Positions 5,120-6,425 of a stretch of 64,000 nt of DNA are shown here, one piece after another (the first letter of the stretch is position 1; the number at the start of each line of letters is the position of its first letter). Below the pieces are notes generated by a model. The model searched no databases. It had not been told where the DNA came from and saw nothing but the letters and a program-made list of their open reading frames with translations. The DNA comes from a virus. Taxonomy: Duplodnaviria; Heunggongvirae; Uroviricota; Caudoviricetes. Where the stretch lies: IMG/VR virus record IMGVR_UViG_2648501839_000008; one strand, 5' to 3'. The position numbers and the translations under genes were made by a program.

Positions 5120-6382
5120 ATGCCTTTTTTAATTTTCATTATTATACTACTGCTCACCGTGATTTTTTGGGATTGGGTTGTTTTAAATGGTCAAATTGTT
5201 GGAACATTGGCTACAGCATTTGCTTTTATAGCAACAGCATGGAATGCCTACGAAGCGAGAAAAAGTGCAAAAGCAGCTTTTTCAGCCCTTCAATTAACAA
5301 CAGAATCATTGTTCGAAATGCGAAAGAGTGCATTTAAACAATGGTTTGATTCCTTATTAAATCAACATGATGAGCTATGTCTTCTTGCAAAACAAATTAT
5401 CGATAAACGCAAAGTTAATTTAAACAGCGATGAGTTACATAGACTATATTACCCATTGGTAAAACAGCATGAGGTAATACAGTATGTGAAGCATATTATT
5501 AATATTTTTGAGTATGTGGATAGTTCATTTTATATTGATGGGGAATGTCTAAAGGAAAAAAGAGCGTATGTGTCACAATTAATTTTCAAAATCCCACCTC
5601 AGATGAAGTTGATCATTGCTATCTTTGGATTAAAAATCGATTATTGTGAACATATTAATTCGGGAAAACTGTGTTGTTTATTGAATAAATATGATTTTTT
5701 CAATGATGAAATATTTTTTGATGATGCTTATTCAGATATGCCTTATCTGGATGCATTCATAAACCTTAGATTCAACAAAATATTCAAATCTCGAATGATA
5801 AATTATTTTGATAATATCATTAAAAGTTATTATGTTCCATCGGACGTTAAAAGGGACTGGATGTTTCGAAACCCAAAGCTCGTGCCGTCGGTTCTTATGA
5901 ATTATAAAACTCCTTGTTCTCCTATAATTAATGATTACTTTGAGAAGTTGCCTTTACATGTAAGAAACTACTTTGAGGAACTACTTAAAACCGCGAATGA
6001 TAGAGTTACTCATTTTGACGTTTACATCCCACGCCTTATTGGTTGTTCAATCGTGCAACATTACGAAGATGTGCCTTCCGAAAAAAACAGGTTAAATGAC
6101 AGGAATGATGTAATAGCTATGGCTGAAGATTACATCGAGAAAAGAAAATATAATCAACTGGATTACATACTTGAAGATATATACTTCAAGAGTGACGAAG
6201 ATATAATCCCTGGCCACCATTTGATTGTGGCATTTGATGACTATGAATTTAAATTATCACTCATTAAGATAAATGAGAATAAAGATAGCGATAATCTTTT
6301 AAATCGAATTTATACTGAATCCAGTAGCATGGTTAAAGAATATAAGCGCGAAATATTAAAACTGGGCGACTATGTAAAGTAA
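5120..6382 (+). CDS. Hypothetical membrane-anchored protein (N-terminal TM helices), visibly AT-rich gene
   Basis: 420-aa ORF; hydrophobic N-terminus LIFIIILLLTVIFWDWVVL and GTLATAFAFIATAW; AT-rich relative to neighbours; own terminator. Confidence 0.55.
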   Translation: MPFLIFIIILLLTVIFWDWVVLNGQIVGTLATAFAFIATAWNAYEARKSAKAAFSALQLTTESLFEMRKSAFKQWFDSLLNQHDELCLLAKQIIDKRKVNLNSDELHRLYYPLVKQHEVIQYVKHIINIFEYVDSSFYIDGECLKEKRAYVSQLIFKIPPQMKLIIAIFGLKIDYCEHINSGKLCCLLNKYDFFNDEIFFDDAYSDMPYLDAFINLRFNKIFKSRMINYFDNIIKSYYVPSDVKRDWMFRNPKLVPSVLMNYKTPCSPIINDYFEKLPLHVRNYFEELLKTANDRVTHFDVYIPRLIGCSIVQHYEDVPSEKNRLNDRNDVIAMAEDYIEKRKYNQLDYILEDIYFKSDEDIIPGHHLIVAFDDYEFKLSLIKINENKDSDNLLNRIYTESSSMVKEYKREILKLGDYVK

Positions 6383-6397
6383 ATTGCACTGTTCAAC

Positions 6398-6425
6398 AAA
6401 AAAGGGGCCGAAGCCCCTTTGAATT
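6398..6425 (+). terminator. Rho-independent terminator (GGGGCCGAAGCCCC hairpin plus T-run)
   Basis: aaaaaggggccgaagcccctttgaatttt immediately after stop of 5120..6382. Confidence 0.6.

Follow-up and report, generated by a model that had tools for sequence, protein, structure and literature searches.

What does a lone, AT-rich gene on the opposite strand to its neighbors encode for the phage-plasmid that carries it? The question is raised by a 64,000-nucleotide stretch of DNA (IMG/VR record IMGVR_UViG_2648501839_000008; the whole stretch is called the window below), an SSU5-like phage-plasmid of Escherichia coli that, at the DNA level, comes closest to Escherichia phage Cyrano (98.6%) and CMS-2020a. 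An earlier note, made from the letters of the window, had described a strongly AT-rich, 420-amino-acid (aa), plus-strand gene facing neighbors on the other strand. Each of these features is borne out. There is a single open reading frame (ORF) of this kind, it begins with ATG, and the adjacent glutaredoxin, integrase, and tRNA genes all lie on the - strand. Its GC content is 32.1%, compared with a window mean of 45.5% (standard deviation, 4.0; same-length windows), which ranks it at the 1.6th percentile and makes it the second-lowest stretch in the 64 kb.

5120-6382, + strand: coding sequence for a 420-aa diverged AbiC/P-family (putAbiC-related) membrane-anchored protein (phrog_18168, homologs, and profile comparisons)

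The answer that we favor, with moderate confidence, is that the gene forms, by itself, an accessory (moron) cassette of an SSU5-type phage-plasmid and encodes a diverged, membrane-anchored abortive infection protein of the AbiC/AbiP family. We infer its anti-phage function from family membership and location. The suggestion in the note that such a gene could be an abortive infection or exclusion factor gains support from the same remote homology.

Family assignment

The only match of the window protein itself is to phrog_18168 (E = 2.5e-214), a group of unknown function. Pfam, NCBIfam, and PADLOC scans gave no genuine match, a search of PDB sequences gave chance matches only, and a match to ATP-synt_I (E = 0.34) was set aside as spurious. 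How, then, can the protein be placed? When 5.8 billion clusters were searched by word index, 7 relatives turned up, and a second such search added little. An exhaustive search of 1.84 billion representative proteins with a profile built on these relatives yielded a family of 66, with 44 at an E value of at most 1e-10. A scan of genome contigs using the close-clade profile found no relative. Domain scans then took in the 54 near-full-length members of the 66. PF16872 (putAbiC, "putative phage abortive infection protein") is matched by 38 of these 54 at an E value of at most 0.01, the PADLOC AbiC model by 7, and the PADLOC AbiP model by 4, over its C-terminal part. Three members from other genomic contexts score above the curated PF16872 gathering cutoff of 22 bits: a Pantoea plasmid protein (45.4 bits), an Enterobacter chromosomal copy (38.0 bits), and a Rahnella prophage copy (33.6 bits).

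The window protein is joined to these proteins by three comparisons. (i) A profile of the window clade, run with hmmsearch, reaches PF16872-passing proteins at E values down to 1e-25 and beyond. (ii) BLASTP aligns the window protein with the Pantoea protein, which carries the RefSeq name "putative phage abortive infection protein," at an E value of 2e-18. (iii) Alignment of the window clade (18 sequences) with the putAbiC-positive clade (29 sequences) by hhalign gives a probability of 100% and an E value of 4e-47 over 367 columns, covering residues 12 to 382; the homology is therefore full length and extends beyond the transmembrane (TM) region. The Pantoea protein (WP_161569778) and the Rahnella copy are thus full-length homologs with the same architecture (406 to 432 aa) at about 20 to 24% identity. 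They pass PF16872, whereas members of the window clade are annotated as hypothetical proteins.

At the profile level, these comparisons demonstrate that the window protein is a highly diverged relative of AbiC and AbiP (putAbiC). The remote homology search that the earlier note had recommended leads to this family, and no homology to a housekeeping phage function was found. The AbiC/AbiP family is known; what is new is a diverged member that is carried by an SSU5-type phage-plasmid and missed by the Pfam and PADLOC models.

The similarly named Abi_C and AbiJ-type HEPN RNases were considered and rejected as a different family: the window protein has no Abi_C domain match in Pfam, and the HEPN motif R-[polar]-x3-5-H is absent from its whole length. 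The SadR paper on a Staphylococcus "AbiC" (PMC13590631) concerns this unrelated Abi_C HEPN family. A separate observation involves the Enterobacter chromosomal member (locus 7818-9278), which has a weak match to the PADLOC model PD-T4-4_B (E = 3.6e-4, residues 81 to 248). It is possible that the putAbiC core is linked to PD-T4-4_B, which is part of an E. coli defense system identified by experimental selection.

An accessory gene in a variable slot

Is the gene a regular part of its element? The following neighbors define its position:

3386-4489, - strand: tyrosine integrase
4700-4945, - strand: GrxA-type glutaredoxin (grx)
4957-5119, + strand: cassette-specific upstream region (blastn boundaries and alignment)
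6401-6428, both strands: bidirectional intrinsic terminator, hairpin plus tail (stem 6401-6408/6413-6420)
6575-7228, - strand: four tRNA genes (Ser/Thr/Tyr/Asn)

The close relatives Cyrano and CMS-2020a lack the gene, and a tblastn search of 50,697 phage records (SSU5 and Cyrano included) found no relative. A 100%-identical protein is encoded on plasmid pG749_2 (NZ_CP014490). In PLSDB, a family member occurs in 134 to 138 plasmid records; the comparison set is the 759 plasmid records that match the window's backbone DNA ligase (~99% conserved), a set that may include elements not of the SSU5 type. Of 5,426 complete E. coli genomes, 40 carry the window allele (more than 90% DNA identity), in every case on a plasmid. 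The gene is accessory, not core, as expected of the moron or cargo gene that the earlier note had taken it for, and the comparison across relatives that the note proposed finds it neither core nor typical in composition, since all alleles keep a GC content of about 32%.

Could the protein instead serve the lytic cycle of the phage-plasmid itself, as a holin, a lysis regulator, or a morphogenesis factor? Its N-terminal TM helices might suggest so, as might a weak match to a PHROG tape-measure family (E = 0.06), which almost certainly arises from helical composition. Against such a role, Cyrano, CMS-2020a, and SSU5 are related, apparently complete, and do without the gene, which also lies outside the lysis and structural modules, on the opposite strand, and is foreign in composition. 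We regard a lytic role as very improbable. Still less credible is the idea that the ORF is decaying or nonfunctional. A few copies do look frameshifted or split, but the frame is intact in 39 of the 40 E. coli genomes, the ratio of nonsynonymous to synonymous substitution rates (dN/dS) is 0.32 at a dS of 0.22 relative to an 86%-identical allele from Escherichia albertii, and the AlphaFold model has a mean predicted local distance difference test score (pLDDT) of 86.6. Both of these explanations are poorly supported. The gene is real and under purifying selection. An ORF scan of the window found no antisense ORF of at least 50 aa across it, and the sole other overlapping ORF, a GTG-started frame of 76 aa at the 5' end (5107-5337, + strand, different frame), is probably spurious.

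The limits of the insertion can be read from gene-less Cyrano. In a blastn comparison, the two sequences match across grx as far as 4956, shortly beyond its start codon, and again from 6397 onward; the variable cassette is therefore 4957-6396, made up of 163 bp of upstream DNA, the coding sequence, and 14 bp. Cyrano has 376 bp at the same slot, with an unrelated 116-aa gene on the - strand. The promoter and ribosome-binding site are presumably carried in 4957-5119, where a weak promoter candidate, TTGGTT-18-TATAGT, can be picked out by eye at 5070-5099. No Rfam RNA, tandem repeat or repeat array, or separate partner ORF was found in the cassette. The gene is shown by this content, and by neighbors that differ between contexts, to be a stand-alone single-gene cassette without an obligatory partner.

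What of the clean intrinsic terminator that the earlier note had credited to the gene? The hairpin (6401-6420) is real, with an RNA folding free energy of -14.7 kcal/mol and a z score of -2.4, but it does not belong to the gene. It lies on the backbone side of the right junction, and an identical hairpin is present in Cyrano. The - strand has the cleaner U-tract (UUUUUUGUUG, compared with UUUGAAUUUU on the + strand), and a terminator scan placed the hairpin there. Because gene-less Cyrano has the same hairpin and the - strand has the better U-tract, it is a shared backbone element, namely, a bidirectional terminator that separates whichever gene fills the slot from the tRNA cluster converging on it. 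Plasmid NZ_CP083480 has the hairpin twice: a diverged allele of the gene is followed by a degenerate copy, and then come a 555-nucleotide gene and the intact hairpin (locus 7222-8182). This duplication suggests that the hairpin serves as a recombination junction. Cyrano has a 555-nucleotide gene in another slot, between the integrase and grx (locus 3758-4312).

Alleles at the slot

Phage-plasmids of E. coli, E. albertii, Klebsiella, and Enterobacter carry family members in the same slot and orientation. Identity to the window protein is 86% for the E. albertii allele, 53% and 31% for two E. coli alleles (NZ_CP083480 and AP024133, respectively), 36% for Klebsiella, and 40% for Enterobacter, the last aligning only over residues 1 to 311. 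Across the E. coli and E. albertii elements with diverged alleles, the integrase and ligase are about 99% identical. Relative to the element with the 86% allele, the ligase has a dS of 0.095 and a dN/dS of 0.03, compared with a dS of 0.22 for the gene; relative to the 53% allele, the dS of the gene is saturated (~1.7) and that of the ligase is 0.07. Since the dS of the alleles exceeds that of the ligase, the alleles have a history separate from that of the backbone, which indicates replacement by recombination on near-identical backbones.

The slot is reminiscent of the hotspots of P2 and P4 (PMC9122126, PMC13586616), which are likewise fixed between core genes, exchange their cargo rapidly on near-identical backbones, and hold opposite-strand, AT-rich genes. 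Unlike those hotspots, which cycle unrelated systems, the window slot in the examined loci cycles diverged alleles of one family. In some elements, the slot also hosts other small genes. In plasmids of Klebsiella (locus 1249-3795) and Enterobacter (locus 1152-3793), phoH and genes of the YafO toxin and Gp49 families also lie between the integrase and the AbiC-like gene, and this part of the element is a multislot accessory region.

Protein architecture

How is the protein built? Four segments can be distinguished:

5126-5245, + strand: N-terminal hydrophobic hairpin, TM1 at residues 3-22 and TM2 at 24-42 (Kyte-Doolittle hydropathy, charge count, and AlphaFold)
5210-5299, + strand: TM2 with the juxtamembrane helix, residues 31-60, where the family is most conserved (motif T..AF.ATAWNAYEARKSAKAA)
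5471-5719, + strand: equivalent of the putAbiC core, residues ~118-200 (position of the PF16872 match in relatives; hhalign, 119-177)
5720-6379, + strand: hypervariable C-terminal module, residues 201-420 (low identity among slot alleles)

The earlier note had seen two hydrophobic helices at the N terminus. The first is strong (Kyte-Doolittle score of 2.83); the second is marginal by hydropathy (1.73), but AlphaFold places helices at residues 2 to 22 and 24 to 45. A K/R-rich segment follows TM2, and the predicted topology is therefore N-in/C-in, which leaves most of the protein cytoplasmic. The AlphaFold model, built from a 54-sequence alignment (predicted template modeling score of 0.75), replaced a poor one made from 6 sequences (pLDDT of 64). 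It shows the helical hairpin (2 to 45), a long helix (50 to 97), an all-alpha body, and a three-stranded sheet near 310 to 364.

Conservation divides the protein in two. Mean identity among the slot alleles is 45% for residues 1 to 200 and 20% for residues 201 to 420. Residues 31 to 60 reach 70%, have the lowest entropy of any block, and contain an invariant run. The region equivalent to the putAbiC core holds invariant Y122, F193, and F194, and polar positions conserved across the family are Q82-H83-(N/D)84, Y122, D134, and D192-F193-F194. The C-terminal module is modeled with high confidence as a helical fold plus the small three-strand sheet. The isoelectric point of the soluble part, 7.8 for residues 43 to 200 and 5.5 for residues 201 to 420, is not notably basic and neither favors nor excludes nucleic acid binding.

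Relatives in other contexts

The family is not confined to phage-plasmids. In Rahnella laticis, a putAbiC-positive member stands alone, on the opposite strand, in a P2-like prophage (locus 7974-9272); its neighbors are homologs of P2 tail genes, S and R at one end and V, W, J, and I at the other. P2 itself has a nonessential, opposite-strand gene, orf30, in the S-V gap; the P2 record places this gene there, not the Z/fun locus. Orf30 is unrelated to the family (hhalign probability of 0.3%). The Rahnella copy means that one family uses moron slots in two unrelated types of temperate phage. Accessory hotspots of temperate phages are enriched in defense genes, unannotated ones included (PMC9122126, PMC13586616). 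The Pantoea plasmid copy lies in an accessory region adjoining recombinase and transposase genes, and the Enterobacter chromosomal copy lies between ABC-transporter and epimerase genes, with no mobile-element context.

Comparison with lactococcal AbiC and AbiP

How close is the resemblance to the proteins that gave the family its name? The lactococcal sequence used here is the AbiC-type protein of p275A (WP_081144410, listed as AbiC in PMC6458302), not the original AbiC of pTN20. Like the window gene, lactococcal AbiC (Prf) is encoded by a single, very AT-rich gene on a mobile element (the p275A gene has a GC content of 26%). It also begins with two TM helices, after which comes a helical extramembrane domain with a putAbiC core (PMC13064643); in the p275A protein, the TM helices are at residues 4 to 28 and 47 to 71. 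Neither AbiC nor the window protein has a structural match that gives a function. The differences are considerable. The core is at residues 118 to 200 of the window protein and at about 190 to 250 of AbiC, only some 60 residues align, and the window protein has an extra hypervariable C-terminal module of about 220 aa, with no counterpart in the 338-aa lactococcal protein, as well as a Gram-negative phage-plasmid host.

AbiP is membrane anchored, too, and its cytoplasmic domain is related to AbiC. It provides the only mechanistic precedent, since it binds nucleic acid (RNA more than single-stranded DNA) and is activated by a phage structural protein, the major tail protein (PMC13064643). AbiP differs from the window protein in having one TM helix and in being much shorter (the PADLOC profile has 223 positions), and the window protein does not match the AbiP model.

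A possible mechanism

How might such a protein act? We propose that it would be made by the resident phage-plasmid and anchored in the inner membrane by its N-terminal two-helix hairpin, with the remainder in the cytoplasm. The C-terminal residues 201 to 420 would recognize a component of an infecting phage and so act as a sensor or specificity domain; by analogy with AbiP and the major tail protein, the trigger may be a late or structural phage protein. Recognition would activate the N-terminal module, comprising the TM hairpin, the juxtamembrane helix, and the putAbiC core, and the activated module would halt phage development after DNA entry, protecting the lysogen population and the phage-plasmid. 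Arrest could come about by membrane damage through the conserved hairpin or by AbiP-like nucleic acid binding. Because TM2 and the juxtamembrane helix are the most conserved part of the family, we lean, on weak support from this pattern of conservation, toward a membrane-directed effect. Alleles would be exchanged by recombination at the fixed slot, whose borders are the start of grx and the terminator of the backbone.

The same features could be read in another way. In superinfection exclusion, injection or entry of DNA would be blocked at the inner membrane and the cell would not be killed, so that the process would not be abortive infection. A membrane anchor whose TM2 and juxtamembrane helix are the most conserved segment would suit this role, as would carriage by temperate elements at moron slots, and the variable cytoplasmic domain could track injected phage proteins. 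Small superinfection exclusion proteins, however, typically lack a large folded cytoplasmic domain, and one of about 380 aa, as here, would be atypical of them. In addition, AbiC and AbiP, the only characterized relatives, act after DNA entry, with AbiC lowering the production of capsid protein and AbiP affecting replication and the transcription switch (PMC13064643). Exclusion is thus an unlikely explanation of the gene, and an abortive infection protein is the reading retained here.

Several results weigh against an abortive infection protein as well. The window protein gives no PF16872 match even at an E value of at most 10 and no PADLOC match at any threshold, and its closest relatives score 18.0 to 22.0 bits on PF16872 where the cutoff is 22; these scores imply that the window clade has diverged until it falls slightly short of PF16872 detection. 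In hhalign, the family profile aligns only weakly with the p275A protein (E = 1e-4, probability of 58%, 59 columns, window residues 119 to 177), and the narrow window clade does not match it. Judged by these alignments, the link to the lactococcal proteins is transitive, made via hidden Markov models, and limited to a core of about 60 to 80 aa plus the shared two-TM layout. A consensus scan of the + strand of 4957-5119 found no strong sigma-70 promoter. A protein resembling AbiC, with which it shares 38% identity, did not protect against the phages used to challenge it (PMC11381338). Literature searches on putAbiC and PF16872 found no papers, and no experiment on any enterobacterial member was found.

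Might the gene be cargo of a different kind, such as a membrane protein for host fitness or lysogenic conversion, an addiction toxin, or a factor directed against competing plasmids? The lactococcal protein without phage resistance speaks for this, as do the lack of any enterobacterial member with a demonstrated function and the chromosomal copy, set between ordinary ABC-transporter and epimerase genes away from any mobile element. Set against these points are the family-level homology to the AbiC and AbiP models, the replacement of alleles with a hypervariable half, which is typical of conflict genes, and, for a toxin in particular, the absence of an antitoxin-like partner from the cassette. 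On balance, nondefense cargo seems rather unlikely, and we continue to favor an abortive infection protein.

A broader speculation can be built on that preference. The slot between grx and the tRNA genes of the SSU5 supergroup may serve specifically to diversify a bipartite, single-protein immune receptor, with a conserved membrane effector half and a swappable, hypervariable C-terminal sensor, by recombination anchored on the conserved terminator and the grx start. It would then represent a widespread enterobacterial defense missed by defense finders, with a mechanism unlike that of lactococcal AbiC. We offer this scheme tentatively and consider it doubtful as a whole.

Other features of the window

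Two further stretches of low GC content deserve mention. The lowest in the window (29.4%) holds a 567-aa ORF (16239-17942, - strand) with a Pfam KAP_NTPase match of 24.9 bits (cutoff of 20) and a match to the PADLOC candidate system PDC-S49 (E = 2.8e-22), the latter confined to the N-terminal 226 residues. It is probably a second defense-type cargo gene. The third lowest (36%) lies at 55984-57479 (+ strand) and contains three ORFs of 102, 216, and 82 aa, which had no match in Pfam and PADLOC scans.

Around the slot, a near-perfect 33-bp palindrome (16-nucleotide arms, 94% complementary, with a 1-nucleotide spacer) is found between the integrase and grx at 4588-4620. It is kept in all relatives examined and might terminate transcription in both directions or bind a protein. 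On the other side, a 20-nucleotide inverted repeat (6495-6572; 95% complementary, 38-nucleotide loop) adjoins the 3' end of tRNA-Ser (- strand) and could be a processing or termination hairpin. The window cluster encodes tRNA-Ser, -Thr, -Tyr (7062-7148), and -Asn; Cyrano has three genes and lacks tRNA-Tyr (locus 5312-5559), and the spacing between the Ser and Thr genes differs. The tRNA cluster itself is therefore variable.

What the finding means

Phage-plasmids of the SSU5 type are frequent in clinical E. coli, Shigella, Salmonella, and Klebsiella, and a recent survey found defense systems to be rarer in them than in P1-type elements (bioRxiv 10.1101/2025.09.12.675607). If the family is defensive, a fixed slot in about one-sixth of such elements would hold an anti-phage gene that Pfam and PADLOC miss, which would bear both on the host range of therapeutic phages and on how mobile elements compete. 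The natural allele series, with its shared backbone, conserved N-terminal half, and hypervariable C-terminal half, amounts to a ready-made domain swap for mapping sensor and effector. It could make the mechanism of the AbiC/P proteins, unsolved since 1992, experimentally tractable.

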